A stretch of 64,000 nt of DNA from an uncultured delta proteobacterium (GCA_963745835.1 CAVUZH010000024.1:128001-192000); one strand, 5' to 3'; shown: positions 23,285 through 40,149, counted from the stretch's first letter. Numbers and translations are program-made. Notes: generated by a model from the letters alone, not told the origin.

Positions 23285-23989
23285 CTAACTGAGAAAGAAC
23301 GTAAGGCCCAGCATAAACAAACTGCTGTTGATACCGGCATTTTTGCCGTGAATACCCGCGTTGGAAATATGATGAAAGCGCCACTCTCCGGTCAATGCGG
23401 TGCGTTGGCTTATGAAGTAGTGAAGACCTACGCCTGATTGCACGATGAAATTCAAACCATCGGCTTGCCGAGCCAGATCGGCGTCCAAAGCGATGAAGCC
23501 GACACCGGCATGGAAGAACGGAATAAACCGAGTGCCGGTCAAGAAATTATAGCGCAGCCCCGGTGCGATACCTCCGGCGATTCCAGGGTTGGGTTCGAAC
23601 ATGTAGAGGAAGGTCCCTTCGAGTATTAATTCGAAGTTCCCCCGGTACCAACTGCGTCCTCCCAACGGATCCGAAATGCCGATGCCCCAGCGCGGAGTGG
23701 CATAGACGAATTGAATATCTTCCAACACGGGGGCGTGACTACCGCCAACCGGCAGTGCATATCCATAGCCGCCACTGATCCCCAACGATTGCTTACCATA
23801 CCCGAACGCCGACTCGTATGTGCGCGGCTGGTCTGCGGCATCCGCGGCCACAGCTTCGCCATTTTTCAGCGCAAATCCCGAGAGAGTAATCGATGCAACG
23901 ATTAGAAGGATGACGTGTCGAAGGAAGCTTGAATAAGTGTTTGGTCGTCGGTCGAAGATGCGGTTTTGATACCACGAGTCGTTGATCAC
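23285..23989 (-). CDS. Lipid A 3-O-deacylase PagL / acyloxyacyl hydrolase family beta-barrel
   Basis: FHHISNAG...N.GINS catalytic motif, amphipathic beta strands, aromatic residues near the C-terminus. Confidence 0.8.
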   Translation of the reverse strand: MINDSWYQNRIFDRRPNTYSSFLRHVILLIVASITLSGFALKNGEAVAADAADQPRTYESAFGYGKQSLGISGGYGYALPVGGSHAPVLEDIQFVYATPRWGIGISDPLGGRSWYRGNFELILEGTFLYMFEPNPGIAGGIAPGLRYNFLTGTRFIPFFHAGVGFIALDADLARQADGLNFIVQSGVGLHYFISQRTALTGEWRFHHISNAGIHGKNAGINSSLFMLGLTFFLS

Positions 23990-24299: not shown

Positions 24300-25178
24300 T
24301 CATTTCCACAACGTCAGCAGCAACACGCCGCCGACAATCATGGCGGCGCTGATGACGATTCGAAGAGTGACACGCTCGACATCGCGTAAAAAGAGCGCGC
24401 TAAAGATCAGTGAAAAGAACGGGCCGGTGCTGCTTATCGGAATCACCACAGAAACTTTACCCAAATCCAAGGCATAGTAGATGCAGACCATGCCAAGGCT
24501 GATGGTAATCCCAGCCGCAAAAAACCACCAGAAGCATTTCCGGTTCATTTTCCAGGTTTCTTGACTCTTCTCCACATACCAGAGCGTCAACAGCGACACC
24601 ACGAAGGAAGAAGTTGCGGTAACCGCCGCGGCTAGAAACGGATGGGGAACGGCTGCCAAACCAAATTTGCGCACCACCTGAGAGGCGCCCGCGAGTGCCG
24701 AGGCGCCGATGGGATACCATAAAAAGATGGCGGAGCCCGCGAGTTTCACTGAACCGCTGCGCCAGGATAATAAGGTGATGCCAGCGATAATCATCAAGGT
24801 GGCGACAACGATTGGCAAAGTGATTTGCTCGCCGAGAAAGATAATCGCCATCATCGCGCTGAACAGCGGGGTGGTGGCGCGGATGGGATCGGTGATCGCC
24901 ATCCCCAGCGCATCGATGCCTTTGTAGGTTAACAATCGGGTCAATCCCGGTTGGAAAAATCCGACCACGACAAAAATCAAAATTGACGCGCTAGTTAAAG
25001 ACGACAGCGGCACGAACAAGATCGACACGCTCCAGAGAAATACAATGTTAATCAACAGGCTACTGATCACGCCGGTGGCAGGATTGGAGTAGCGCATCGC
25101 CTTTTTGGTGAGCATGTTATGGAATGCGAATAGAAAAGCGTTCGCCAGGGCGTAGAATTCAGCGGGGATGGCAGCCAT
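24300..25178 (-). CDS. EamA/DMT family transporter
   Basis: Ten TM segments in two repeats, FLGEQIT, GKVSVVIPI. Confidence 0.88.
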   Translation of the reverse strand: MAAIPAEFYALANAFLFAFHNMLTKKAMRYSNPATGVISSLLINIVFLWSVSILFVPLSSLTSASILIFVVVGFFQPGLTRLLTYKGIDALGMAITDPIRATTPLFSAMMAIIFLGEQITLPIVVATLMIIAGITLLSWRSGSVKLAGSAIFLWYPIGASALAGASQVVRKFGLAAVPHPFLAAAVTATSSFVVSLLTLWYVEKSQETWKMNRKCFWWFFAAGITISLGMVCIYYALDLGKVSVVIPISSTGPFFSLIFSALFLRDVERVTLRIVISAAMIVGGVLLLTLWK

Positions 25179-25421
25179 GTTGCGTGAATTATTATTTGGG
25201 GGAAATATGCCGGGATTGTAGACGTTCGTGATCTGCTGCTTTCGACGTGCACCTGAGCTATACAGTCTTTAATATCAGAGGACAAATAATCGTGCCATCA
25301 AAGGGTTATTATCTAGACGCTCAGCGCTCCAGAAATTGATTCTTTGATTCCCCTTCCTGCAAACAGGAAAAAAATTAGATTAGAGAACATCGAACGAGTT
25401 GAGAGCTTTAATGGCCGTCTC

Positions 25422-28202
25422 ATGAAAAGAACCTTCTTGCTTTCTTTACTGCTCGCTCTGCTCTTACTTAGCACCTATGCCTCGATCAGACAGGCTCAGG
25501 TCGGTAGCTGCCTCGCCTATGCGTTTGGCGGCTTGCGCGAAGTCGCGCAGGAACGCTCGACGCGCTTTCTCGGAAAAGTTCACGAGGACAGCGCACGCTG
25601 CCGCGGCGGCGAGTCAGCGGTAGCTTGGCGCAACACACCGTGGATCGACTGGCAACGCTACTCGGCCGCGGCGGGCCCTGAAAGTCGGACCCGCGGTTGG
25701 GCCGGCAACCTCGGTTTTTTTAGTCCGGACAACCGCGGCCTTAACGGCGCGCTGCTCGATCTCGAGTACCAGCGTCTTGAATTGCTCAAGTTTAATCTGT
25801 TCGACAACAGCGGCACTTTCCCGACTTATATGCGCGACTGGCACAGCCCATCGGATGTCACAAAGACCTGGCCCGAATTGCGGCTGCCGAAGGACCATCC
25901 GCTCTACAAAGAGGTCGGCGGCGATGGTCCTCAACTCTGTTCCGGTGAATTAATACGCTTTCGCACGATCAGCGGGATTTGCAACGACATCACCAATCCG
26001 CTGATGGGCTCTACCGGCCAGCCGTTTGCGCGCAACGTTGAATTCGAGAGCACGTTTCCGGAGCTGGCTATGGACCCGGTTGCCGCAAATCGCCACGGCG
26101 GTCGAATCGGTTTGTTAAAGCCCGACCCGCAGCTCATTAGCCAAAAATTATTCAGCCGCCCATTAGTAGGAACATGCGATGGTTACGAGCTAGGAAATTC
26201 GACTGTAGCGAGTTGTGCCTATCAAAAAGCGTCACACTTAAATTTGCTCGCAGGATTCTGGATCCAGTTCGTGACCCACGATTGGTTTTCTCATCTAGAC
26301 GAAGGACAAAACCAATCGGCAATGATGGCGATGGGCTGCGATGATCACGAAGGAGCAAACGATCGAAGTAGGTTGGCGGCCGCGCGAGCCGAACCAGCCG
26401 GCTGCCGCCCCACCGATCGCATCGATAAAAGCTTGATCGCTCAGGACCTGCCGGCGCCGACCTTCAAGCTTGGCAAAAACTCCTACATGACGCGTGCGCA
26501 CAGAACCACGGTCAACAAAGTCACCGCGTGGTGGGATGCTTCGCAAATTTACGGATATGACGAGACATCGCGCCGGCGGGTAAAGCGCGATCCGCGCGAT
26601 CCGGCCAAGCTATTGCTGGAGCCGGGAATAACGGCTAGGGAAAACACGCCGGTTTATTTGCCGAGGTTGAACTCTGCCGATCCCACGAATCCACAGTGGA
26701 TCGGCCAGGAAGCTGTCGCCTTCCCCGACAACTGGAACATCGGTCTGAGTTTTTTCCACAATGTATTCGCGCGCGAGCACAATCTTTTCGTCGACGCCTT
26801 TCGCCTGGAAATGAGAAAAAACCCGGATGCCGATTCCGGATTACGACGACCGGTACAGCCCGACAAACTGATCAGTAACAAGGAGGTCACAGCCGACGAG
26901 CTCTTCGAAGTGGCGCGTCTAGTGATTGCAGCCGAGATTGCGAAGATCCACACCATCGAGTGGACCACCCAGCTGCTTTACAACAAGCCGGTCTACCTCG
27001 CTATGAATGCCAATTGGTCGGGTCTGTTTGACGAGCACCCTTTGGTCAATGCCGCTCTCGAGCGGGTAATCCAGCGGTTTACTCAATCCGATAATGGCAG
27101 AAAAGCCACTGGATGGTATGCCGCTTTCGCCGCCGGACCGGGGATCGTCGGTCTCGGCAATACGCAAGCCGACGTTAGTGCCGGGGTCAACCACTTCGGT
27201 TCGCCTTTCAGTTTTCCTGAGGAGTTCATCAACGCCTACCGCTTGCATCCGATGCTTCCCGACTTCATCGAACTCCGCGAGCTGAACCACCGAAACGTTA
27301 TCAAGTCGAAGATTGCAGTTTCCGAAACTCTGCGCGGCAAGGCGACTCAAGCGATGCATCAGCACGGGCCGGCCAACTGGGCGCTCTCATTGGGCCGGCA
27401 GCGACTCGGCAAGCTGACATTGCGTAACCATCCGAAGTTTTTACAAAGCCTATCCATGCCTCGCCTAAAAGGTGGCAGCGGTAAAATAGATGTCGCCGCT
27501 TTGGATCTGATCCGCGACCGGGAACGCGGCATACCACGTTATAATGAATATCGACGCCAGTACGGTCTCAAACAGCTGACCAAGTTTGATGATTTCATCG
27601 ACCCGCAGGTTTCAAAGAACTCGGCCGAATGGACAGAGCAGCAAAAGCTCGTGGAGCTACTCCGGGAAGTTTATGGACAACATCGATGTGCTTCGTCGAA
27701 GATCATCACGACCGCGCAGAAAAATGACGACGGCAGCCAAATCAACGACTGCCTTGGCCATCCCAACGGCAGCCTCGTGGATAACATCGAGGACGTCGAC
27801 GCTATGGTAGGATGGCTCGCTGAATTCGCGCGCCCTCACGGTTTTGCCATCTCGGAAACACAATTCCAGGTTTTCATTCTTAACGCATCCCGGCGGCTTT
27901 TTAGCGATCGCTTTTTAACATCGAGTTTTCGACCGGCGTTTTACACCAACCTAGGCTATAACTGGGTAAACAATAACGGTCCTGGCGCAAAAATCTTCGA
28001 ACCGAAGAAAGCCAACGGACATACGGTCGAAGTGTCGCCATTAAAGCGCGTGCTTCAAAGAACGGTTCCAGAATTGCGCGAAGAACTCGAACAGGTCGTA
28101 AATGTTTTCGATCCCTGGACCCGGGACCGCGGCGAATACTACTCGCTCGCTTGGAAGCCGCGGCGCGGCGCAGAAGCGGACTTATCCTTCAAAAGCAATT
28201 AG
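25422..28202 (+). CDS. Secreted heme enzyme of the peroxidase-cyclooxygenase superfamily, fatty-acid alpha-dioxygenase-like
   Basis: Signal peptide MKRTFLLSLLL; WIQFVTHDW, WWDASQIYG, AKIHTIEWT, YRLHPMLPD, RDRERGIPRYN, ASRRLFSDRF. Confidence 0.85.
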   Translation: MKRTFLLSLLLALLLLSTYASIRQAQVGSCLAYAFGGLREVAQERSTRFLGKVHEDSARCRGGESAVAWRNTPWIDWQRYSAAAGPESRTRGWAGNLGFFSPDNRGLNGALLDLEYQRLELLKFNLFDNSGTFPTYMRDWHSPSDVTKTWPELRLPKDHPLYKEVGGDGPQLCSGELIRFRTISGICNDITNPLMGSTGQPFARNVEFESTFPELAMDPVAANRHGGRIGLLKPDPQLISQKLFSRPLVGTCDGYELGNSTVASCAYQKASHLNLLAGFWIQFVTHDWFSHLDEGQNQSAMMAMGCDDHEGANDRSRLAAARAEPAGCRPTDRIDKSLIAQDLPAPTFKLGKNSYMTRAHRTTVNKVTAWWDASQIYGYDETSRRRVKRDPRDPAKLLLEPGITARENTPVYLPRLNSADPTNPQWIGQEAVAFPDNWNIGLSFFHNVFAREHNLFVDAFRLEMRKNPDADSGLRRPVQPDKLISNKEVTADELFEVARLVIAAEIAKIHTIEWTTQLLYNKPVYLAMNANWSGLFDEHPLVNAALERVIQRFTQSDNGRKATGWYAAFAAGPGIVGLGNTQADVSAGVNHFGSPFSFPEEFINAYRLHPMLPDFIELRELNHRNVIKSKIAVSETLRGKATQAMHQHGPANWALSLGRQRLGKLTLRNHPKFLQSLSMPRLKGGSGKIDVAALDLIRDRERGIPRYNEYRRQYGLKQLTKFDDFIDPQVSKNSAEWTEQQKLVELLREVYGQHRCASSKIITTAQKNDDGSQINDCLGHPNGSLVDNIEDVDAMVGWLAEFARPHGFAISETQFQVFILNASRRLFSDRFLTSSFRPAFYTNLGYNWVNNNGPGAKIFEPKKANGHTVEVSPLKRVLQRTVPELREELEQVVNVFDPWTRDRGEYYSLAWKPRRGAEADLSFKSN

Positions 28203-28282
28203 GCAAACTCGCGAGACGAGGAGCCGGCTCGGGGTTCTACTCCGCCGGAAATCGAGCCGCAATAACCAGATCTGATAAGTAG

Positions 28283-30136
28283 CTAACGATTGTCAGCCAG
28301 GATCGCGTCCGCAGCCTTTTCACCGATCATGTACACGGCGCTGACGATAAAGAAGCCTGGAATGCGCGGAAATACCGAAGCATCGACAACCCGTAGCCCT
28401 CTGGTGCCGTGCACCTGGAAATCGCTCGTTAGCACCCCGCCTTTTTCTTTGGCCCCGATTGGGCAAGTGCAGGAAGCATGGTGACCCCAGGCGTTGTTGC
28501 GCACGTAATCGCCAAGCTCGGCATCCGATTGAACCTGACTACCCGGCAATTCCTCCTCTGAAATGACCTTCTCTGTTCTGAGCGCTGCTGTCATTTTGCG
28601 CACGAACTTGATGCCTTCGACAACGCTGTCGAGGTCCTCTCCACTCGTGTCGCTACCCTCATCGAAATAGCGAAAATTGATTGTCGGGGTATCTCTTGGA
28701 TCTGACGAGCGCAAGCTCACCGCCCCCGCGTTGTTGCGGGTATGCGCTTTCAACACCACCCAACTCAAATAGTTGTGGTGCGCTGATATCAGTTGTGAGT
28801 ATCCCGGGAAATAGCCCTTGAATTTGCCGATAAAGCCGAGGCAGAACAGATCCGGGACGGTACGACTCGGCTGGGATTTCTTAACCACCACCAGCGCTGC
28901 GCCGGCAGTGGCATACACACCCTTCCTATCTGCGGCCCATTCTCGATACTGCGGATCGCTGCTATCGAACTTTGCCGCTGCCAATACATTCCAGTCCTGC
29001 GTCATGCGATTGACGACACTCACCTCATAACGGTCCTGCAGATTCCTGCCGACGCCGGGAAGGTCGATCCGCACTTTGATGCCGTGAGATTGCAAGTCCT
29101 CTCGTGGGCCTATGCCGGACAGCATGAGCAATTGGGGGGTATTAAAAGCTCCGCCGCACAAGATCGTCTCTCGCGCAGCAAACGCTTGGCGTATTTCTCC
29201 TGGCTCGCTGCTGGGATCACTATGGGCGCGGTACAGACGCTCCCCTTTGAGGTACTCGACGCCTAATGCGCGATTATCCTGGTCGAACAGCACTCGCGTC
29301 ACCAGAGCGTGAGGCTCGATGTGCAGCTTACGGGGGTATCTCTTGGCCACGTCCAAGACGCGCTCGCGAGTGCCGATGCGCCCCTGATTGCACGTGGTCA
29401 GAGGTGTGTAGCGCACGCCGAACGAATTAGACTGCACCAAGCGCCAGTCATTGGGATCGTGCTGCGATTTGATCGACCATCTAACTTGCGTCAGCGGATC
29501 TCCCATTTCTTTGAATGCCTTCAGCGCCGATCCCTTGATCATGTCCATCATGTCTCGATCGCCCAGCGCCAATCTGGGATCTCTTCGCTCGGTAGTCAGC
29601 CAACCGCTGAAACCATGGCGCGTTGGATTTAATCCCAAGATTTTCTTTAGCCAGCGATAGGGAGGTCGATGGCGGCAGTCTTCCAGACGCTCGAAGTACC
29701 GGCGCATGTTTTCAGCTCGCCAGGAAGGATCGCCCGTCAGGTCGGCGATATCGTCCCAATCTTGATTGTGCGGATAGACCAGAATCATTGCGTTATGGCT
29801 CGTGCAACCGCCCAACGCGCCGGCGCGAGGATAAAGGACGCCGTCTCTCATGGCCGTGAATTTAGAGTCTTTCTTCTGGCGCTCGTCATCATCGTAGTGG
29901 CGCACGAAGAAATCCCACCTCAAGGCAGGATTCTCAGATGCGAAAGGATGAAAGGCAGGGACTTGGTAGTCTTCCGGCAAACGTGTGCCGGCTAGACCTA
30001 GGGGATCGCCGCCCGCTTCCAGAAGCAAGACCGTGCGTCCGGCTTCGGCCAATCGCGCGGCGACTGTGCCGCCGCCGGCGCCCGATCCGACGACGACGTA
30101 ATCATATCCATTGGATGGCAAATCCGCGGCAGACAT
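28283..30136 (-). CDS. GMC family FAD oxidoreductase
   Basis: DYVVVGSGAGG, LGGCTSHNAM, GAFNTPQLLMLSGIG, PGVGRNLQD, LRVVDASVFP. Confidence 0.92.
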   Translation of the reverse strand: MSAADLPSNGYDYVVVGSGAGGGTVAARLAEAGRTVLLLEAGGDPLGLAGTRLPEDYQVPAFHPFASENPALRWDFFVRHYDDDERQKKDSKFTAMRDGVLYPRAGALGGCTSHNAMILVYPHNQDWDDIADLTGDPSWRAENMRRYFERLEDCRHRPPYRWLKKILGLNPTRHGFSGWLTTERRDPRLALGDRDMMDMIKGSALKAFKEMGDPLTQVRWSIKSQHDPNDWRLVQSNSFGVRYTPLTTCNQGRIGTRERVLDVAKRYPRKLHIEPHALVTRVLFDQDNRALGVEYLKGERLYRAHSDPSSEPGEIRQAFAARETILCGGAFNTPQLLMLSGIGPREDLQSHGIKVRIDLPGVGRNLQDRYEVSVVNRMTQDWNVLAAAKFDSSDPQYREWAADRKGVYATAGAALVVVKKSQPSRTVPDLFCLGFIGKFKGYFPGYSQLISAHHNYLSWVVLKAHTRNNAGAVSLRSSDPRDTPTINFRYFDEGSDTSGEDLDSVVEGIKFVRKMTAALRTEKVISEEELPGSQVQSDAELGDYVRNNAWGHHASCTCPIGAKEKGGVLTSDFQVHGTRGLRVVDASVFPRIPGFFIVSAVYMIGEKAADAILADNR

Positions 30137-30406
30137 TTTTATTGAAGCTCGCCGGATAACATTGCTAGCGCGGATTATTCATTCTTCGAAAAGCACGACA
30201 CCGTGTTGCCGGGGAGTCAGCCTCGGAGCGAGCGGGCGGAGGAACGTAAAAGCTGCGCCTACCTGTAACGGAATTGGTAATCGGCTTCGTTTTCTTCCTG
30301 CTGTACACTCTACCACTTATATTTAGTCGGCGGCCTCAAGAAACAGGCCCATTGCTCGCGCTCGCAAACTCGCTCCTCGGACATGGTTCTGTGAATAAAT
30401 TTCGTA

Positions 30407-32803
30407 TTAGAACGTCTTCAAGAATTCGATCAACGCTCGTTTATCTTCGTCGCTCAGCGGCGTCTCTTCCTTCAGCAAACTCGTGCCGAAGTAGTGGCCC
30501 CGGTTGACGACGAAATCCGGACACTTGCTGACCTGCAAGAGATCAGGCACGAGGTTTTTAAACACCTCGGCCGCTTCCTGTTCGCTCTTGCCTTCTACCG
30601 CCTTGAGATCGGCTTTCATCTTCAATAACAGCTTAGCCAAATCGATTTTGCTGCTCTCTAAGTCGATATTCGTAAGCAGATTCACCGGAGTGCCCTTCGG
30701 AATGGGGCCGATTTGCACCCCTTCTTCATTAAACAGCCAAGGCAACCAGCGCGCTCCCAAATCATTCCAGCTGAGCAGATGGTTCAGAGAAGCGGGTAAG
30801 AACCCGGGGGCGAGTTTGATATAGCTCGTCGCGGTGGTGCGATAGATGAACCCCGGCACCTTGTCAGCGAGAATCGGGTCTTTGTCACGCTTTTCCGGCC
30901 ACAGCATTTTTTCTATCGAATCATTGAACGACTCCATGCGCGCCTCCACGGATGGTGACGGATTGAACTTGCCGACTGAATTGTTGAGCAGAAAAGGCGC
31001 CGTTGACCACAAGCTAATTAGCGAGGGCACGCGGGTATAGCCGCGCCCATTGCCGGGCATCTCGTATTCCTGCGGGCTGCCGTCGATCGGGTTGTGCACG
31101 GTAATCTTGCCCACCGATGGCAAGTCTTTATAGGTTTGCGATGAGTAATTGTCCCAGATGTTGCCGCCGAGAGCATTGGTCGCCAGCGGACTGCAAGCGT
31201 TGGTCTGGAGCAAGGTAACAGGAATGCGGCGGTCCGTGGACAAATAATTATCGACGAGAAAATCATCCGCCATCACCATCTCAGTCATTTTTTTCTTGAA
31301 GTCGTCGGTCTTGGTCCATTTCCAGTATTGCTCCCAATCCCGTTCATCCACACCAGCGGACGCTGCGGGAATCTTGCTCGAATGACAGCGCGCGCAGGTC
31401 TCCGCGAACACCGTCTTGCCGCGAGCCAACTGAGCTTGATCCTTGGTCAGATATTGCTCGCCACCCGGAACATTCTTGAGCAGATCCGGCTGCGCCGTCT
31501 TGAGGAAGAACAGCGCAACATCCGGAGTCTGGGCCACGGTTGCGTTCCAGTAGCTCGAATTTTTTTCGGCATCCTCAATCCTAATGGGCGTGATTTTTTT
31601 TCCGCCTACTAGAGCATTGAAATGCAGCAGCCACTCTTCGCTGAACAGCCCAATGTTGATGAACACGCGATTCAGCGCCCCAAGCACGCCGACGGAATCC
31701 GCACCGTCTTTTAGGATGCGCGGCGTCCATACGGTGTCGGGTGGTTTATGGTACTGCGCCAAAGCCGCGGTTTGCTTGAAGTCTTGGAACTGCTTGTTCT
31801 TGACTCCTCCGCCGGCGAGTTTTTCCTCTCCCCAGCGTTCGGCCGCCTTTAAACGCGCCGCGACGCTGTAGACGGCGTTCATTGTGCGCGGGTTATTGAT
31901 GTAGTCGGTGGAAATAAACGATGTGTCTAAAGTACCCGGCAATGACGTATGGAGCAGTTGCTGGATGAAATTGGCGTCATCCTTTTCCCAGAAAAGAATC
32001 CGGTCCACCCAGAAATATTGAGTGCCGGGATTCGAGTTCAGGTTTTCCCATTTGGGATTTTCCGGATCCGCCGGCGGTTTAACCGGACTCGGCCCAACAT
32101 GGCAAAAGCCACACGACATGCCGACTCGGTAAGGACGAATCAGGTTTTTATCATTATAGTAGTCGGGGTCGGTATAAAATTTTTCCGCATTCCATTTCTT
32201 TTGCGCCGCTTCGTCGAACTCCGGATTCGGAAACAGGCGCAGGCCGACAATTCCCGACGCATAGCCGTACAACGATCCCACGGGAATGTTCTTACCGCGC
32301 GCGCCAATCTGGATGCCGGGATATTTCTGTTCGTTTTCGAACGGGTCCGGCGGGCAATCTTTGCTGCGCGTATCCAGCCACAGGCCGAAGCGATCTTTGT
32401 TCGCGGTCTGTGGCTTATCAAAGCAGGGCTCGTTTACCAGGCCAAGTTCTTGCCAACGCGTGTCCCGGCTCAGATGTTTGATGTTGGGATGAGATGAAAG
32501 AATCTTAAGTAGATCGACGGCGCCAAAGCTCTCGCTAACGAGGTGATCCCAGAAGCGGTCGTTGCCGCCGCTCCAAACGATCCAGTTGTTGCGTCCCCTC
32601 ACCTCATTGGCCGTGAGTTCCACCCCGCCATCCATGTCTTTAAAATAATCCTCATCGGCGGCCGGCAAGCTTTCCGCAGTGCGTCCAACCGTTAACGCCT
32701 CGTCCTTAACCGAGCCAGGTTCGGGCGATCCTTTTCCGCATCCGGAAGCTGCGAGGATGACGAGTATCGATAGCGCAGAAAGGTTCAGACGACGGATTTC
32801 CAT
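30407..32803 (-). CDS. Large di-heme c-type cytochrome lipoprotein (RoxA/CcP-like family)
   Basis: Lipobox LAASGC; CGFCH and CARCH; LWSTAPFLLNNSVG; NRGHYFG; ALIEFLKTF. Confidence 0.8.
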   Translation of the reverse strand: MEIRRLNLSALSILVILAASGCGKGSPEPGSVKDEALTVGRTAESLPAADEDYFKDMDGGVELTANEVRGRNNWIVWSGGNDRFWDHLVSESFGAVDLLKILSSHPNIKHLSRDTRWQELGLVNEPCFDKPQTANKDRFGLWLDTRSKDCPPDPFENEQKYPGIQIGARGKNIPVGSLYGYASGIVGLRLFPNPEFDEAAQKKWNAEKFYTDPDYYNDKNLIRPYRVGMSCGFCHVGPSPVKPPADPENPKWENLNSNPGTQYFWVDRILFWEKDDANFIQQLLHTSLPGTLDTSFISTDYINNPRTMNAVYSVAARLKAAERWGEEKLAGGGVKNKQFQDFKQTAALAQYHKPPDTVWTPRILKDGADSVGVLGALNRVFINIGLFSEEWLLHFNALVGGKKITPIRIEDAEKNSSYWNATVAQTPDVALFFLKTAQPDLLKNVPGGEQYLTKDQAQLARGKTVFAETCARCHSSKIPAASAGVDERDWEQYWKWTKTDDFKKKMTEMVMADDFLVDNYLSTDRRIPVTLLQTNACSPLATNALGGNIWDNYSSQTYKDLPSVGKITVHNPIDGSPQEYEMPGNGRGYTRVPSLISLWSTAPFLLNNSVGKFNPSPSVEARMESFNDSIEKMLWPEKRDKDPILADKVPGFIYRTTATSYIKLAPGFLPASLNHLLSWNDLGARWLPWLFNEEGVQIGPIPKGTPVNLLTNIDLESSKIDLAKLLLKMKADLKAVEGKSEQEAAEVFKNLVPDLLQVSKCPDFVVNRGHYFGTSLLKEETPLSDEDKRALIEFLKTF

Positions 32804-32888
32804 TGTTTGTTTCTCCCCAACCACAACGCTGCCATTCCAAAGAATCGGCCAGCTTTTCGGCAATAGATCTGTTTCGACTTAGCGAATG

Positions 32889-34349
32889 TCAAAGGCTCTT
32901 CAGATATTCGATCAACGCGTCTTTTTCCGGGGCCGACAAGTTGACGCCGAATTCGTGGCCCTGGTTGCCGCTGGCGCGTTCACTGACATCATATTTGGTG
33001 CCGATTCGTTGCGCCTCCGGACCTTGGCTAACGAACCCGACATTCTCCGGATCGTAAACATCATAACCGCGATAGAATACCTTTGGCCGCTCGGCGACCG
33101 CTTTGAGCAAATCGCGCAGAGTCGGCACCGAACCGTTGTGCAGATAAGGCGCGCGCAGCCAGATGCCGTCCAAGAACTGCGCGATGTATCCACTCGGTTC
33201 ATTTTCGACCAGACCGCGCCGCTCGATGCCGAAATTGCGCACGACTTTGTTGGACTCAATGGCTGCCTGCTTGCTCCAGGTTTTTAGCCGCTCGCGATCC
33301 GTGCCGACCTCTTCAACCGGCACGCGGGTGCCGGTGCGCTCGCTCGCGTGACACCTGGCGCAATTAGCATCAAAAATAGTCTTGCCCAGTTTGGCTTGTT
33401 CCGCCTTGATCGGGAATGGATACTTTGGCGCCTGCAGTTCACTCAAGTATTTCACCAGCCAATCAATCTGCTCCATGAAATCGTCGCGATCGTGCGGCTC
33501 GGCATTGAGCAGGCCCAAGGCCGAATCGATGATCACCGAACGCGCATCATGGCTGTCGCCGGCAAGGTTCATTAGCATGCCTTTCTCCGGCTGGTACTTT
33601 TTTAAATTCCAGACCGACGGCATGTCGGTGGGACCAATCGTATCGTCCATAGGCCAGTTGAGTAGGAAATATTTGGTGAGATTCATGGCATCATCGCGCC
33701 CCCGGCCCCACAACGGGAACTCCTCGTGATACACCCACTTGAATTGCGCTTCGCGTTCGAGCAAACGCTTTTTGGTGATCGGAATCAGCACGTAGCGATA
33801 AATCAGCCGATCCAACAGCGGCAAATCATAAACGAGCGCGATTTCGCTCATGATCTCATCGGCGTTGAAGCGGGGATCCCTGGCACAGTCCACGACGAAG
33901 CGGAAAAATGCCTGCAGATTGAGCGTGTGATTGGGCCCTGCCGGCACAAACACAGGATTTTCATCGGCGCTCTTACGATAGCTGGCGGTGTGGCACGAGG
34001 CGCAGTTATTAGCCACGCGTGGAAAGCCGATCACTTTTTTAGTGAAACCGATCGGCAGCTCCTGACCCTGCTCCCACGCGACTCCTAAGGAAGCATAACC
34101 GCCAGGCCCCGGCAACTTCTCGGGAAACATGCGCGGCAGTACGAAAAAGATCCAATACGGTATGCCGGCATCGTGCTCCGCGCCAATGGAGCCATATTTA
34201 AAACGCATGTCGGGTGTGGCGGTCACCCAGTTAGGTTGCGGCTCCTCACGGAGAAATTTATACCAACCGATAATACCTCCGACAGCAACGAACAGGAGCA
34301 CAAGCAGCAAACAAGTTTTCCACCAGGATTTTTTTTGTCCTGCAACCAT
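32889..34349 (-). CDS. Membrane-anchored di-heme c cytochrome, RoxA-like
   Basis: N-terminal TM; CASCH and CARCH; WLRAPYLHNGSVPTL; GNQGHEFG; ALIEYLKSL. Confidence 0.82.
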   Translation of the reverse strand: MVAGQKKSWWKTCLLLVLLFVAVGGIIGWYKFLREEPQPNWVTATPDMRFKYGSIGAEHDAGIPYWIFFVLPRMFPEKLPGPGGYASLGVAWEQGQELPIGFTKKVIGFPRVANNCASCHTASYRKSADENPVFVPAGPNHTLNLQAFFRFVVDCARDPRFNADEIMSEIALVYDLPLLDRLIYRYVLIPITKKRLLEREAQFKWVYHEEFPLWGRGRDDAMNLTKYFLLNWPMDDTIGPTDMPSVWNLKKYQPEKGMLMNLAGDSHDARSVIIDSALGLLNAEPHDRDDFMEQIDWLVKYLSELQAPKYPFPIKAEQAKLGKTIFDANCARCHASERTGTRVPVEEVGTDRERLKTWSKQAAIESNKVVRNFGIERRGLVENEPSGYIAQFLDGIWLRAPYLHNGSVPTLRDLLKAVAERPKVFYRGYDVYDPENVGFVSQGPEAQRIGTKYDVSERASGNQGHEFGVNLSAPEKDALIEYLKSL

Positions 34350-34385
34350 CGAACCTCCAGGGTCACTCAGGAGCGCACCCGCGAT

Positions 34386-35906
34386 TTAAAAAGTCTTGAG
34401 GTACTCGATCAAAGCGTCTTTGTCTGCGACCGGCAGCTCGGTGCCGTAGCGGTTTCCTTCATGACCTTGATTCGAATTGCCGGGCTCAGCTGTATCGTAA
34501 AGAAAATATTTCCGGCCTTTCTCTTCGCTGACGTCGCCAACAAAGCCAACCTTCTTCTGGTCGTAGACATCGTAGCCGCGGTAAAAAGTTTTCGGTCGTT
34601 TGTCACTGGGCTCCAGCAGGTCGCGCAAGGTCGGCACCGAGCCGTTGTGCAAATACGGCGCCCGCAGCCAGAGCCCGTCGAGCGGACTATTGGCATAACC
34701 GAAAGTTTTGCGGAAGTGCCTGAAGCGTTCTTCGGCGTATCCGGCGAAGATCATATTTTGATTGACGGCAACCTCATAGGTGTAGGAGTCGAGACGTGCG
34801 CGGTCGGTGCCAATATCCTTGATCGGCACCACCTTGCCGACATCTTCGCCGCGAAAATCCTTGCCATCGGCGCCATGGCATTTCGCACAGTACTCTTTGT
34901 AGATCGGCGCGCCTTGGGCGGCGAGATCATTGTTGATCGCAAACGGATAGGCTGGCGCGGCGAGATTGCGGACCCAGTCGGCGACGCGTTTCAAGCTGGC
35001 CCGGTCGCCGGTGGGCGGCGTGATGCCGGTGCCCATGGCGGCGCTGCGGTTACGCTCCTCCAGCGACACGTTGTTACCGTCCCAATGCAAGTTCATTTTG
35101 AGACTTTCGCGTTGGTCCTGATTCCAAATGGACGGAAAATCCGTCGTGCCAATTCGTTCCTCCTTCGAAAGCTGATCGGGCGGGAAATTAAAATAAGCTT
35201 TCAACGGGTTGAAGGTGTCGACTCGCCCCGGACCCCACTCGGGTTGCTCTTTGATGAAATCCAGCCGATCGCGCAAAGTCAGGATTCGTTCGCGCATGAA
35301 ATAAATGCCGTAGAAACGCAGTACCAGCCGATCGATCATGGGTAAATCGTCCAGACCTTCGCGTTCTCGGATAACCTTAATCTGCCGCAGGATGTCCCTT
35401 GGCGTAAATCTCCTGTCCTCGCCGGTCGCGAACAGAAATCTCATGAAGGCGCGGAAGTCAAAAGTATTTGCCGGCATTGCTGAATAAACCTTGGGCTCGC
35501 TTTCCGCGCTTTCGCGCACGGTTCCCGCATGGCAAAAGGCACAGTTGAGCCACACTACGTCAAAGCCGAGATAGCGGCGCTGGGACATGCCGACCGGAAG
35601 ACTTTTCCCCTTCTCGAAAACAAAGCCGACCGACTCCCAGCCACGGCCGGGCTGCGGCAACTTGTCTTCAAACAGCTCAGGTAAGGCGCGCCAGATCCAA
35701 TACGGCACGCCAAACTCGTGCTCGCTGCCGAGGGACCCATACTTGAAATGCTCGAGATCGTCTTTGTAAACCACCGGAGTATCGGCGCCGAAACGTCCCA
35801 GCAACAAAGCTCCCCCCACCATAGCCAGTACCAGCACCACAACAGTGATCCAACCGATGAGCTTCAGAATACGTTCGCCCGGCGACGCTAGTTCAGGCTG
35901 CGCCAT
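34386..35906 (-). CDS. Membrane-anchored di-heme c cytochrome, RoxA-like (paralog of neighbour)
   Basis: GGGGAG RBS before ATG 35906; TM; CAFCH and CAKCH; WLRAPYLHNGSVPTL; SNQGHEG. Confidence 0.82.
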   Translation of the reverse strand: MAQPELASPGERILKLIGWITVVVLVLAMVGGALLLGRFGADTPVVYKDDLEHFKYGSLGSEHEFGVPYWIWRALPELFEDKLPQPGRGWESVGFVFEKGKSLPVGMSQRRYLGFDVVWLNCAFCHAGTVRESAESEPKVYSAMPANTFDFRAFMRFLFATGEDRRFTPRDILRQIKVIREREGLDDLPMIDRLVLRFYGIYFMRERILTLRDRLDFIKEQPEWGPGRVDTFNPLKAYFNFPPDQLSKEERIGTTDFPSIWNQDQRESLKMNLHWDGNNVSLEERNRSAAMGTGITPPTGDRASLKRVADWVRNLAAPAYPFAINNDLAAQGAPIYKEYCAKCHGADGKDFRGEDVGKVVPIKDIGTDRARLDSYTYEVAVNQNMIFAGYAEERFRHFRKTFGYANSPLDGLWLRAPYLHNGSVPTLRDLLEPSDKRPKTFYRGYDVYDQKKVGFVGDVSEEKGRKYFLYDTAEPGNSNQGHEGNRYGTELPVADKDALIEYLKTF

Positions 35907-36119
35907 AGACGTTCTCCCCCCGTAATGGTTGCTCGCTGCACTGGCGTTGTCACGATCATCAAAAGTTAGTGCCGTCGTTTGACGTGAATCGATTGAAGAT
36001 TGGCTCGAGATCGAAATAGCTGGAGTTGTTCGTGAAGAATATGGCTTCGATCCTGGGGGCCCCCGCGGCAGGATCGCCCCGAACCGCGGTGTCAGGTTCA
36101 CAGCATCGGCTTTATCTGA

Positions 36120-36557
36120 CTAGGAGTTAAACTTCAGGGCAAAATCAATCAATCGCTTTTTCTCCCAATAAACCTTCCCCAAGTAGAGGCCGGGTTCGAT
36201 TTGGCGGATCTCATCACGTATCCACTGAGCGATAATGGAGGTATCGGAGTAATCCAGAACAATACAGTCTTTGCCGTCGAGCCAACTAGGTGCTTTGTAA
36301 ACTTTGGCGATGATGGCATTGAGACCAAAAGGAAGAATTCGGTTTTTCAGGACTCCCTTGCCGGCATCGAAGACTTTACCTTGCCAGGCAAAGTTACTGA
36401 TGAACTTGGCGATGTTCGAACTGAACTTCGTGCCGGGCGCAACGATCGCGGTTCCATCCGCTTCGCCGTTTGGAATCTCGCCCGCGGCGCATTTGCCGAA
36501 AAGGTCGTCGAGGTCTGCTTGCGACATGCTCAAAAGTTTCTCGACATCGTAAGCCAT
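36120..36557 (-). CDS. Small conserved hypothetical protein (possible lipocalin-like beta-barrel), first gene of the cytochrome operon
   Basis: Strong RBS; WQGKVF, SWLDGKDCIVLDYS, IRDEIRQI.PGLYLG. Confidence 0.75.
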   Translation of the reverse strand: MAYDVEKLLSMSQADLDDLFGKCAAGEIPNGEADGTAIVAPGTKFSSNIAKFISNFAWQGKVFDAGKGVLKNRILPFGLNAIIAKVYKAPSWLDGKDCIVLDYSDTSIIAQWIRDEIRQIEPGLYLGKVYWEKKRLIDFALKFNS

Positions 36558-37135: not shown

Positions 37136-38491
37136 TTACTCTCCGGCCACGGTCATCTTAGAAATTTTAATGGTAGGCGCGGCGATGCGGCCTCTCATTT
37201 CGAGATCGTTGCCGATCGTCTCGATATTTTGAAACATCTCTTTGAGATTCCCCGCAATCGTCACCTCTTCGACGGGATACGCGAGCTCGCCGTTTTCGAT
37301 CCAGATGCCGGCGGCGCCGCGCGAGTAATCGCCGGTTACGAGATTAACACCGAAGCCGATGGTCTCGGTTAAATAGAGGCCCCGTTTCACAGAACCGATA
37401 ATCTCGTCAGGCGCTTGCTTGCCGGGCGCAAGATAAAAGTTGGTGGGCGCCACACCCGGCGGTTCACCTATCGAACGAGAAGCATTTCCGGTCGAAGCCA
37501 TGTTTAACTTTTTGCCGCTGTAAGTGTCGAGCAGATAGCTGCGCAAAAACCCATTCTCAACTACAGCCTTTTGGGTAATCGGCAAGCCTTCGGAGTCAAA
37601 TGGTTTCGAGCCGAGCGCTCCGGGAATGGTTCCATCGTCCCAAACCGTGGTTAGATCCGACGCGATCTTGTTGCCGAGCTGACCGTTTAGAAAGGATGCG
37701 CCTTTGTACAAAGAGTATCCCGACAACGCGGAGGACAGATTCCGCAACAGCGAAGCCGCCATATCGGGATCGAAAACAATCGGCACTTCGCAAGTTTTAA
37801 TTTTACGAGCGCCCAGACGGCGCAATACCCGTTCGGCGGCTCTTTTGCCAACGCTCTCCGCCGAATCTAATCGGGCAAATTTTCGATTGGACGAATACCA
37901 ATAGTCTCTCTGCATCGAACCATTTTGCGACGCCACCGGAGCGACTGAATGACCGAAATTCGATCCGTGATACTCGCCGCAGAATCCATGACTGCTGGCG
38001 TAGATAACCCGACCGGATTGGTTGGAAAATTCCGCCCCTTCAGAGTTGGTAATGCGAGGATCGAATTCCATGGCCGCCTTCTCGGCCGCCAGCGCGATGG
38101 CGATTTTGTCATCGACAGAAACTGAGTCCGCCGCATTATCGAAGAGATCCATGTCGGGAATATCTCGAGCCAACAATGCAGCGTCGGGCAAGCCGCTGAA
38201 CGGATCTTGAGCGGTAAACCGGGCCATATTGATGGTATCCTCAACAAGTTTGTCGATGGCTTGTCTTGAAATATCCGAAGTTGAGGCAGAGGCGGAGCTA
38301 TTGCCGTAAAACAACCGCAAACCCAGCCGCTTTTCTTGAGCCTGGCTAATTTTCTCCACTTCGCCAAGACGAACGGTGACAAAGAAAGAGTCTCCCTCCA
38401 CCATGACGATGTCGCCCTGAGTCGCTCCTTTAGCTTTGGCCGTGTCGAGAACCTCGCGCGCCAATTGCTGACTGAGATCGAGTCGTTCCAT
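37136..38491 (-). CDS. pmbA: Metalloprotease partner PmbA/TldE
   Basis: MQRDYWY, PFDSEG, GVNLVTGDYSRGAAG, EVTIAGNL; follows tldD. Confidence 0.93.
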   Translation of the reverse strand: MERLDLSQQLAREVLDTAKAKGATQGDIVMVEGDSFFVTVRLGEVEKISQAQEKRLGLRLFYGNSSASASTSDISRQAIDKLVEDTINMARFTAQDPFSGLPDAALLARDIPDMDLFDNAADSVSVDDKIAIALAAEKAAMEFDPRITNSEGAEFSNQSGRVIYASSHGFCGEYHGSNFGHSVAPVASQNGSMQRDYWYSSNRKFARLDSAESVGKRAAERVLRRLGARKIKTCEVPIVFDPDMAASLLRNLSSALSGYSLYKGASFLNGQLGNKIASDLTTVWDDGTIPGALGSKPFDSEGLPITQKAVVENGFLRSYLLDTYSGKKLNMASTGNASRSIGEPPGVAPTNFYLAPGKQAPDEIIGSVKRGLYLTETIGFGVNLVTGDYSRGAAGIWIENGELAYPVEEVTIAGNLKEMFQNIETIGNDLEMRGRIAAPTIKISKMTVAGE

Positions 38492-38530
38492 GTTTCCTTC
38501 CCGCTTACTGCCTGAACTATTCCGGGTCGA

Positions 38531-39982
<1,452 letters not shown>

Positions 39983-40149
39983 GTTAGATTCTCCCTTGAC
40001 GATTTGTACCACCTCGAACCTTCGCTTTAAAGACATTCGCTCACGCGCATTGAACTGACCTGCTCTGCCAAAAATGGCCTAAACTGCTCGGTTGATCGTT
40101 CTAATCGGTATGGGTTAGAATCCGCTCCATCAAAACCTAGGTGAGGACA

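Follow-up and report, generated by a model that had tools for sequence, protein, structure and literature searches.

What do six neighbouring genes, encoding a haem dioxygenase-like enzyme, three di-haem cytochromes, a glucose-methanol-choline (GMC)-family flavoenzyme and a small protein of an unannotated family, do in an uncultured soil bacterium, and do they do it together? The question is raised by positions 25422..36557 of a 64,000-nucleotide stretch of DNA (GCA_963745835.1 CAVUZH010000024.1:128001-192000; hereafter the window), which belongs to a 7.3-Mb, 25-contig assembly; near-identical contigs elsewhere carry the labels Candidatus Binatia or 'delta proteobacterium' metagenome-assembled genome. 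A first-pass annotation had proposed a dedicated cell-surface oxidative system. The reading that we hold to be probable, by a modest measure, is that the locus encodes a modular system divided between two compartments, which would oxygenate fatty acids (or fatty-acyl lipids) and process the resulting hydroperoxides. What can be established directly is which genes are present, to which families and folds their products are assigned, which of these carry export signals and that the parts are repeatedly found together. The gene positions, the convergent layout, the six CxxCH sites and the unrelated flanks that the first-pass annotation described were all borne out by open reading frame (ORF), motif and family scans. 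Exactly two CxxCH sites occur in each cytochrome (cyt818, cyt486 and cyt571), and a motif scan of the six window proteins found none in the haem enzyme, the GMC protein or p145, the small protein.

The haem enzyme (25422..28202, plus strand) is a member of the peroxidase-cyclooxygenase superfamily of 926 aa when read from the ATG at 25422, the longest ORF beginning at a TTG at 25344. It matches PF03098 (An_peroxidase, E 4.8e-66) and reaches no NCBIfam family. Its closest solved relatives are the rice and Arabidopsis fatty-acid alpha-dioxygenases (4kvj, E 3.8e-50; 4hhr, E 4.8e-46), with lactoperoxidase and myeloperoxidase placed far lower among its PDB matches, and the earlier description of an alpha-dioxygenase-like enzyme therefore stands. 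The segments WIQFVTHDW, AYRLH and ASRRL align with WIQFMVHDW, VYRMH and ASRRL of the rice enzyme, and presumably hold the distal His (HDW), the catalytic Tyr and proximal His (Tyr-x-x-His of AYRLH) and the carboxylate-binding Arg (SRRL). Possessing both the An_peroxidase domain and the aligned His, Tyr and His motifs, the protein falls within the alpha-dioxygenase branch, where its activity may be 2-hydroperoxidation or, equally, of a 10S-dioxygenase-like or other regiospecificity. It differs from the plant enzymes in size, with about 300 more residues than the 621-652 of the solved chains and an alignment broken into four separate blocks, and in its predicted signal peptide, a signal-like hydrophobic segment lying at ORF residues 29-49. 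Fatty-acid alpha-dioxygenases of cyanobacteria exist as further relatives (cited in the portion of PMC13049297 available).

The tandem genes for cyt571 (34386..36101, minus strand; 571-aa ORF) and cyt486 (32889..34349, minus strand; 486 aa) encode di-haem cytochromes that are approximately 40% identical to each other. Both are membrane-anchored, as had been claimed for two of the cytochromes, each having one N-terminal hydrophobic anchor (residues 8-34 of cyt486; ORF residues 75-107 of cyt571). For the latter, homologues of 504-507 aa indicate a start at Met 35906, giving a protein of 506 aa. The CxxCH sites lie at 116 and 330 in cyt486 and at 187 and 405 in cyt571. Both proteins match PF21419 (RoxA-like_Cyt-c; E 6e-17 for cyt486 and 3e-16 for cyt571), and both pass the cut-off of 150 bits for NF040606, a di-haem cytochrome c peroxidase subfamily (186.6 bits for cyt571 and 155.7 for cyt486), a model for which no match was found in 14 control genomes. 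A profile of the pair matches RoxA (4b2n, E 2.6e-23) over RoxA residues 273-542 and 627-662, an alignment that spans APY(L/F)HNGSVP and the C-terminal GH...EY(L/I)KT(F/L) tail, where NSNQGHE...EYLKTF of the pair is set against GNDNGGHDF...EYIKTL of RoxA. Both cytochromes thus display the structural marks of RoxA, namely two CxxCH sites, the PF21419 domain and a His-bearing C-terminal tail. They part at the column of RoxA W302, which lies between the haems: all 8 of the 8 cyt571-type rows have Trp (LHWDGNN, aligned with FWDG of RoxA), and all 5 of the 5 cyt486-type rows have Leu (MNLAGDS).

Judged by sequence, cyt571 and cyt486 are therefore members of the RoxA superfamily, but by the NCBIfam cut-offs they are not rubber oxygenases, as the RoxA, RoxB and RoxC equivalog models (NF050033, NF050034 and NF051462) score only 56.8-87.1 bits against cut-offs of 900-1000. 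This bears on the proposal that RoxA-type dioxygenases here cleave an isoprenoid or unsaturated polymer (polyisoprene, carotenoid or squalene-type), with the GMC enzyme oxidising the aldehyde or alcohol products for catabolism. Such a role would be in keeping with the PF21419 domain, with the alignment of W302, PYxHNGSVP and the C-terminal His motif to RoxA, and with RoxA, RoxB and RoxC being the next-best NCBIfam matches. We nevertheless consider it improbable, given not only those scores but also that the window proteins are membrane-anchored, of 486-506 aa and about 25% shorter than RoxA, rather than secreted 70-kDa enzymes. Moreover, the recurrent partners described below are fatty-acid or hydroperoxide enzymes and lipases, with no isoprenoid enzymes seen in the loci, so that the neighbourhood suggests fatty acids and not polyisoprene; and the Binatota genome paper makes no mention of rubber, RoxA, dioxygenase, oxylipin, peroxidase or GMC.

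A closer precedent for the pair is the oleate-diol synthase of Pseudomonas aeruginosa, which consists of a 10S-dioxygenase (PA2077) and a 7,10-diol synthase (PA2078), termed 'fatty acid di-haem cytochrome c peroxidases' in the accessible part of PMC4496055. As described there, these are tandem, extracytoplasmic, RoxA-related di-haem paralogues that are 43% identical, compared with about 40% here, and one has the inter-haem Trp (W251 of PA2077, as in cyt571) and the other does not (S243 of PA2078; Leu in cyt486). The window pair repeats the Trp/no-Trp pattern of PA2077 and PA2078. The CxxCH spacings are 245 and 235 in PA2077 and PA2078, and 218 and 214 in cyt571 and cyt486, respectively; the Pseudomonas proteins are of about 65-68 kDa, whereas those of the window have approximately 486-506 aa and an N-terminal helix anchor.

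The third cytochrome, cyt818 (30407..32863, minus strand), is a di-haem c-type lipoprotein encoded by an 818-aa ORF, with a probable start at 32803 (798 aa). Its CxxCH sites are at 251 and 490, its signal is followed by a lipobox-like ...AASGC site, and a signal with Cys or a membrane anchor is present in every homologue listed. The first-pass annotation had counted three RoxA-like cytochromes; by sequence, cyt571 and cyt486 retain that description, but cyt818 does not, as its NF040606 score is 43.8 bits (cut-off 150), from a match confined to profile positions 293-448, and it carries APFLLNNSVG where the pair has PYLHNGSVP. A search of the PDB with its sequence gave no match, and hhalign between its profile and that of the RoxA-like pair covered no more than 28 columns, those surrounding the second haem site; any relation to the pair appears weak at this level. 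For structure, an AlphaFold2 model built on a 26-sequence alignment (pLDDT 74.5) was compared exhaustively with solved proteins, and the leading matches were YhjA (Z 8.3), MauG (8.0), BccP (7.7), hydrazine synthase (7.5), the MauG-like 6e1c (7.4), RoxA (6.5) and BthA (6.2), with the next row at 4.5. RoxA gave the longest of these structural alignments (354 residues), and a Foldseek search of the model against the PDB returned nothing at E <= 0.001. The model thus points to a two-domain di-haem fold of the cytochrome c peroxidase (CcP)/MauG/RoxA type, with Z values that are middling.

Peroxidases at the head of this series bring forward a different role, in which the cytochromes reduce H2O2 or membrane lipid hydroperoxides using electrons from a quinone pool fed by a cytoplasmic GMC enzyme, much as membrane-anchored quinol peroxidases like YhjA do; the patatin, DyP-like and catalase-related proteins found in related loci would then repair peroxidised lipids and not serve synthesis. 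Besides the fold matches of cyt818 (YhjA at Z 8.3, BccP at 7.7), the N-terminal membrane anchors of cyt571 and cyt486 and the naming of NF040606 as a di-haem cytochrome c peroxidase subfamily are in agreement with this, as is the best NCBIfam match of the GMC protein, choline dehydrogenase (NF002550, 250 bits, below its cut-off). Choline dehydrogenase is linked to the respiratory chain. We judge peroxide defence or respiration to be unlikely, however, because none of the three cytochromes matches PF03150 (CCP_MauG) at E <= 0.01, the haem enzyme that co-occurs with them retains a Tyr characteristic of dioxygenases, and the Trp/no-Trp split suits a dioxygenase and isomerase pair. In addition, the C-terminal GH of the pair aligns with the C-terminal His of RoxA and not with a CcP-type Met ligand (ligand roles in part from PMC4496055).

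The GMC-family flavin adenine dinucleotide (FAD) oxidoreductase (28283..30136, minus strand; 617 aa) contains both domains of its family, PF00732 (GMC_oxred_N, E 3.7e-21) and PF05199 (GMC_oxred_C, E 6e-30). In the PDB it comes nearest to chloramphenicol oxidoreductase and choline oxidase (E 1e-44), and it is about equally distant from these, the alcohol oxidases and fatty-acid photodecarboxylase (E 1e-44 to 5e-33). Neither BetA model is reached at its cut-off (212.8 bits against 732.1 for TIGR01810; 250.1 against 605 for NF002550). The FAD motif VVGSGAGGG is present and the catalytic His is conserved, H553 aligning with the His of YHPVGT in choline oxidase. The second active-site Asn/His is replaced by a Phe (PGFFIVSA; residues ~594-597) that is invariant in 25 homologues, at a position where choline oxidase and chloramphenicol oxidoreductase both have Asn, in the former the residue that we take to be N510. 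This invariant Phe makes for an unusual active site in a GMC enzyme.

The last of the six, p145 (36120..36557, minus strand; 145 aa), is a small, predicted cytoplasmic beta-barrel protein with no Pfam or NCBIfam match. Of its 7719 homologues 120 were listed, every one of them unnamed or 'hypothetical'; from Binatia to Acidobacteriota, column identity averages 77%. Among named Atlas clusters the nearest is GXWXG/DUF4334 at 0.87, which serves as a lead only, and 24 members of the p145 family gave no match to the corresponding PF14231 or PF14232 at E <= 10. No PDB sequence was matched by either profile or single-sequence search. An AlphaFold2 model (pLDDT 79.6) finds its best fold match in 4mve, a structural-genomics protein (Z 10.3; next row 6.5), and among its weaker structural neighbours are small closed barrels of the lipocalin and fatty-acid-binding protein kinds. 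From the modelled fold, p145 is probably a lipid carrier for a hydrophobic product.

With regard to location, the FAD motif of the GMC enzyme begins at residues 14-23 in all homologues listed, and neither the window protein nor any of these has a signal, twin-arginine translocation (Tat) or otherwise; the enzyme is predicted to be cytoplasmic or to lie at the inner face of the membrane. The same is true of the listed p145 homologues, which begin at a conserved MAYD.... Cytochromes of the c type are matured outside the cytoplasm, and with GMC and p145 lacking export signals the system would therefore span the inner membrane. Thus, the notion of a system lying wholly at the cell surface has to be abandoned, and the suggestion that H2O2 from the GMC enzyme feeds the peroxidases directly becomes unlikely, as donor and recipients are in different compartments. 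The two sides could be linked by a transported product or by the quinone pool. A complex prediction for GMC and p145 gave a score of 0.00, which is uninformative either way.

The absence of signals also tells against a periplasmic flavoprotein dehydrogenase-cytochrome c complex of the fructose or gluconate dehydrogenase type, in which GMC would be the catalytic, p145 the small and cyt818 the cytochrome subunit, passing electrons from a sugar or alcohol to the respiratory chain. A GMC protein, a small protein and a c-type cytochrome do recur together in Acidobacteriota, and the C-terminal domain of cyt818 weakly resembles the cytochrome subunits of fructose and alcohol dehydrogenases (Z 3.6-3.7). 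Yet the Tat signal expected of a small subunit is missing, the listed homologues of GMC and p145 being without a signal of any kind, which argues against any Tat-exported complex; cyt818 has two haem sites and a CcP/MauG/RoxA-type fold in place of a three-haem subunit; and p145 occurs without GMC in two loci (L164 and L166). We consider such a complex very improbable.

Whether the six genes belong together was assessed using 72 cyt818 loci from species-representative genomes and 80 haem-enzyme loci from metagenomes, in which the six window proteins were mapped and every ORF was clustered and then counted. GMC is present in 63 of the 72 cyt818-seeded loci. Amongst the 41 of these with at least 6 kb on both flanks, GMC is found in 38, p145 in 20, the RoxA-like cytochromes in 9 and the haem enzyme in 8; for the 31 well-flanked loci that are not of Binatia type, the respective figures are 28, 12, 2 and 1. 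These non-Binatia loci include Acidobacteriota, Sorangium, Geobacter hydrogenophilus, Steroidobacteraceae and Methylomirabilota, and cultured carriers of the cyt818-GMC unit are Acidobacteriaceae KBS 89 and KBS 96, Sorangium sp. So ce176 and Geobacter hydrogenophilus DSM 13691. With GMC in 38 of 41 well-flanked loci, the invariant core is cyt818 and GMC, to which p145 is a common third member and the RoxA-like pair and the haem enzyme are exchangeable additions. The first-pass view of the six genes as one dedicated unit is therefore right in that the parts recur together across loci far more than chance would give, but the unit is not indivisible; likewise, co-occurrence across phyla holds for cyt818 and GMC, whereas the complete six-gene layout was seen only in Binatia-type contigs.

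That the parts are exchangeable is apparent from the arrangements in which they occur. The haem enzyme gene converges on GMC in the window and is co-directional with it in G022; it follows a patatin-like gene and an alpha/beta hydrolase in L143; and it is separated from GMC by a 258-aa protein of unknown type in L098, L102, L103 and L134. In L164 and L166, a haem enzyme of about 50% identity forms a tight, same-strand run with a recurrent partner family (U396), p145 and a RoxA-like cytochrome. Of 81 sampled same-family genomes, 35 have the haem enzyme and 43 have cyt818, with 28 holding both, 7 the haem enzyme only, 15 cyt818 only and 31 neither (28, 7, 13 and 31 of 79 once G018 and G183, flagged as unpublished and both cyt818 only, are set aside); these counts are descriptive and not statistics, the genomes being related and not independent. 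Where a genome holds the two, they are mostly close together, sharing a contig at a distance within 10 kb in 22 of 28 cases, and in G011, G167, G166 and G184 the linked haem enzymes are only 40-58% identical to that of the window. The haem enzyme was found in 0 of the 120 other genomes of a phylum-wide sample that is too sparse to mean more.

It might be supposed that the haem dioxygenase, the RoxA-like pair and the cyt818-GMC unit have no joint function, being independent genes that are adjacent through shared ancestry in one lineage. The restriction of the six-gene layout to Binatia-type contigs would be explained in this way, as would the presence beside an EamA gene of the dioxygenase alone (L104, L106) or of the cytochrome block alone (L028, L030, L033). 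Inherited gene order by itself is, however, hard to sustain when the members recombine in varied order and orientation at 40-60% identity (G011, G167, G177:C234, L143 and L164), and when cyt818 and GMC are adjacent across several phyla. Independence of the parts is, accordingly, something that we doubt strongly.

A number of individual copies were observed alongside these counts. Two loci labelled as other phyla, L026 (a Verrucomicrobiia bin) and L071 (a Chloroflexota bin), contain the full Binatia-type cluster with cyt818 87% and 83% identical to that of the window, and their labels probably result from mis-binning or mislabelling. At G177:C234:6499-11420 there is a second, divergent pair about 2 kb apart, with a haem enzyme of 40% and a cyt818-like protein of 44% identity, which suggests an older duplication of the linked pair. 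In L013, from one genome of the same family, a second and very divergent pair (G024:C60:6591-9640) of p145-like and cyt818-like proteins, each 28% identical, sits directly beside the main GMC-cyt818-p145 block. Finally, cyt818 is in pieces or has internal stops in the same-family genomes at G189:C18, G192:C50 and G201:C42 (the last also in its haem enzyme); these are either decaying copies or assembly errors.

The identity of the exchangeable partners bears on the substrate. In Acidobacteriota, the usual layout is a 500-aa DyP-like protein, a second family (U433), p145 and GMC, next to U396, cyt818 and a further cyt818-type gene (DyP-like-U433-p145-GMC / U396-cyt818-cyt818'); in the Binatia-type loci L031 and L033, U433, the DyP-like protein and U396 stand in place of the RoxA-like pair. 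The DyP matches of the 500-aa protein are weak. A U396 profile of 12 sequences matches the catalase-related allene oxide synthase (AOS) of coral (1u5u, E 2.6e-6; 3dy5), as well as 3e4w, a small catalase-related protein from a mycobacterium (E 0.011); a single U396 sequence found no match in the PDB, and the copy in L164 scores 24.7 bits on Pfam Catalase. Patatin-like proteins occur in 7 of the 72 cyt818 loci, and a class-3 lipase (Lipase_3) and alpha/beta hydrolases also recur. Proteins of the catalase-related AOS type act on fatty-acid hydroperoxides. The AOS-like, DyP-like and patatin or lipase partners thus point to fatty acids and their hydroperoxides as substrates, and, taken with the alpha-dioxygenase affinity of the haem enzyme and the PA2077/PA2078-like pair, fatty acids are the most economical substrate class. 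Of the substrates mooted in the first-pass annotation, a lipid yielding oxylipin-type products therefore reads best. Another recurrent partner, a DUF4331 protein, often with a TPR protein, was seen beside cyt818 and GMC in L038, L065, L073, L076 and L143, all non-Binatia loci. An apparent 1460-aa GMC-patatin fusion in L145-L147 was dropped, as it has no Pfam domain and is an over-extended ORF overlapping GMC in another frame.

Returning to the proposal of fatty-acid oxygenation in two compartments, we infer the substrate, the order of steps and the reaction of each enzyme to be as follows. Four haem enzymes would act outside the cytoplasmic membrane: the alpha-dioxygenase-like enzyme, cyt571, cyt486 and cyt818. 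Free fatty acids would first be oxygenated there by the alpha-dioxygenase-like enzyme and/or the Trp-bearing cyt571, the latter, as a RoxA/PA2077-like protein, probably inserting O2 into the fatty acid. The hydroperoxides would then be converted or reduced by cyt486 and cyt818, with cyt486 probably carrying out rearrangement or reduction in the manner of PA2078. Lastly, products would reach the cytoplasmic face, where p145 may bind them and the GMC enzyme may oxidise their hydroxyl or aldehyde group.

Several observations weigh against this proposal. The product must cross the membrane to reach GMC and p145, and the only transporter nearby, EamA, is lineage-specific. Since polyisoprene is also cleaved by members of the RoxA family, an isoprenoid could be the substrate. 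In structure, cyt818 comes closest to ordinary peroxidases (YhjA 8.3 and MauG 8.0, with RoxA only 6.5), at middling Z. The likeness to PA2077 and PA2078 is drawn from published descriptions and not from aligned sequences. Coupling of the dioxygenase may be loose, since each part occurs alone: 9 of the 14 haem-enzyme-seeded loci with at least 6 kb on both flanks have neither GMC nor cyt818, and the cytochrome-GMC block lacks a dioxygenase in L028, L030, L033 and nearly all non-Binatia loci. Much of the synteny, moreover, comes from related genomes and is not independent.

To our knowledge, bacterial oxylipin formation is represented by few cases, these being the di-haem diol synthase of Pseudomonas, the 10S-dioxygenase and catalase-related lyase of Nostoc, and a few lipoxygenases and alpha-dioxygenases. 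No paper describing the present gene set was found in a full-text literature search whose scope left most subscription journals and supplements aside. In this respect the first-pass statement that no characterised pathway has these genes is upheld, although two partial analogues exist. For the Pseudomonas operon, the accessible text of PMC4496055 reports no third di-haem lipoprotein, GMC enzyme, p145 or cyclooxygenase/alpha-dioxygenase-type enzyme, all of which the window has. In Nostoc punctiforme, a linoleate 10S-dioxygenase related to cyclooxygenases works with a separate catalase-related 10S-hydroperoxide lyase (Brash et al. 2014, as relayed in the available part of PMC13049297). A dioxygenase is similarly paired with a catalase-related protein in L164 and L166, in the run of haem enzyme homologue, U396, p145 and RoxA-like cytochrome; the window differs from the Nostoc system, as far as that source describes it, in having no catalase-related gene, in a dioxygenase that is nearest to plant alpha-dioxygenases among solved structures and has approximately 300 extra residues and a signal peptide, and in its additional di-haem cytochromes, GMC and p145.

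Among bacterial haem enzyme systems of the oxylipin type, the locus is thus a real and hitherto undescribed variant, whose chemistry is put forward here by inference, and what is new in the window is the attachment of a RoxA/FadCcp-like pair and an alpha-dioxygenase-like enzyme to a cyt818-GMC-p145 core. It brings three known kinds of oxylipin enzyme, or their relatives, into one exchangeable neighbourhood, and adds two conserved partners, a GMC enzyme whose active site contains an unusual residue and the p145 family, which has thousands of unnamed members. A broader suggestion, which we offer only tentatively, is of a widespread oxylipin machinery in soil bacteria of many phyla, with chemistry on both sides of the inner membrane: interchangeable haem modules (cyclooxygenase/alpha-dioxygenase-type dioxygenase, RoxA/FadCcp-type di-haem pairs, catalase-related AOS-like and DyP-like proteins) would be arranged around a fixed cyt818 and cytoplasmic GMC, and, with the p145 family as lipid carrier, would make oxygenated fatty-acid signals or antimicrobials. 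If true, this would offer a testable function for several large groups of 'hypothetical' genes in Acidobacteriota and Binatia, which are dominant in soil, as well as new fatty-acid oxygenases for use in biocatalysis and a possible pathway of lipid signalling or lipid repair among uncultured bacteria of the soil.

Within the cluster itself, the cyt818 and GMC genes are separated by a 266-bp intergenic spacer (30140..30405) containing a repeat copy, a second copy of which is at G000:C3:496609-496825 (77% identity over 217 bases). In a close relative (L020) no more than some 35 bp lie between the two genes, which makes the spacer look inserted; it is probably a small inserted repeat and not a functional part of the system. 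Rfam gave no match. No guanine-cytosine anomaly was seen over the cluster in the composition profile, and we therefore make no claim of recent transfer. Scans for promoter-like sites (7, against 8.8 expected from shuffles) and terminator-like sites (26, against 17.3 +/- 3.9 expected) were both uninformative. Contigs assembled from soil metatranscriptome libraries (four libraries, from four studies) fall on all six genes, some of those in X16 having 0-2 differences; this is a hint of expression and not proof, as contigs from RNA libraries may derive from DNA, and gaps in their cover carry no meaning.

The flanking genes are of unrelated families: EamA, PagL and HAD beyond the haem enzyme, and PmbA/TldD beyond p145. 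The EamA/DMT-family transporter gene (24300..25178, minus strand; PF00892) is divergent from that of the haem dioxygenase. It lies at the edge of the cluster in Binatia-type loci, with or without the dioxygenase or the cytochrome block, being directly after GMC where the haem enzyme is absent in L028, L030 and L033, and adjacent to the haem enzyme in three (L099, L104, L106) of four loci (also L100) that have this enzyme without the cytochrome block. It was unseen in the loci of other phyla, and a role as lineage-specific accessory is at best weakly indicated. Two genes from the haem dioxygenase is a PagL-type lipid A 3-O-deacylase, an outer-membrane enzyme (23285-23989). Enzymes of the PagL type release hydroxy-fatty acids, which this one could supply to the cluster, although its position is loose: PagL is also near the haem dioxygenase in the closest relatives (L020, L021, L022 and L039), with extra genes intervening in L021 and L022. 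On the opposite side, p145 is adjoined by a PmbA/TldD metallopeptidase pair (37136-40036). Among the 22 Binatia-type loci, this pair is beside p145 in 11 (or 11 of 14, if only loci with 3 kb or more of sequence to each side are counted), but it is not there in other phyla, and the adjacency is probably a matter of inherited gene order.

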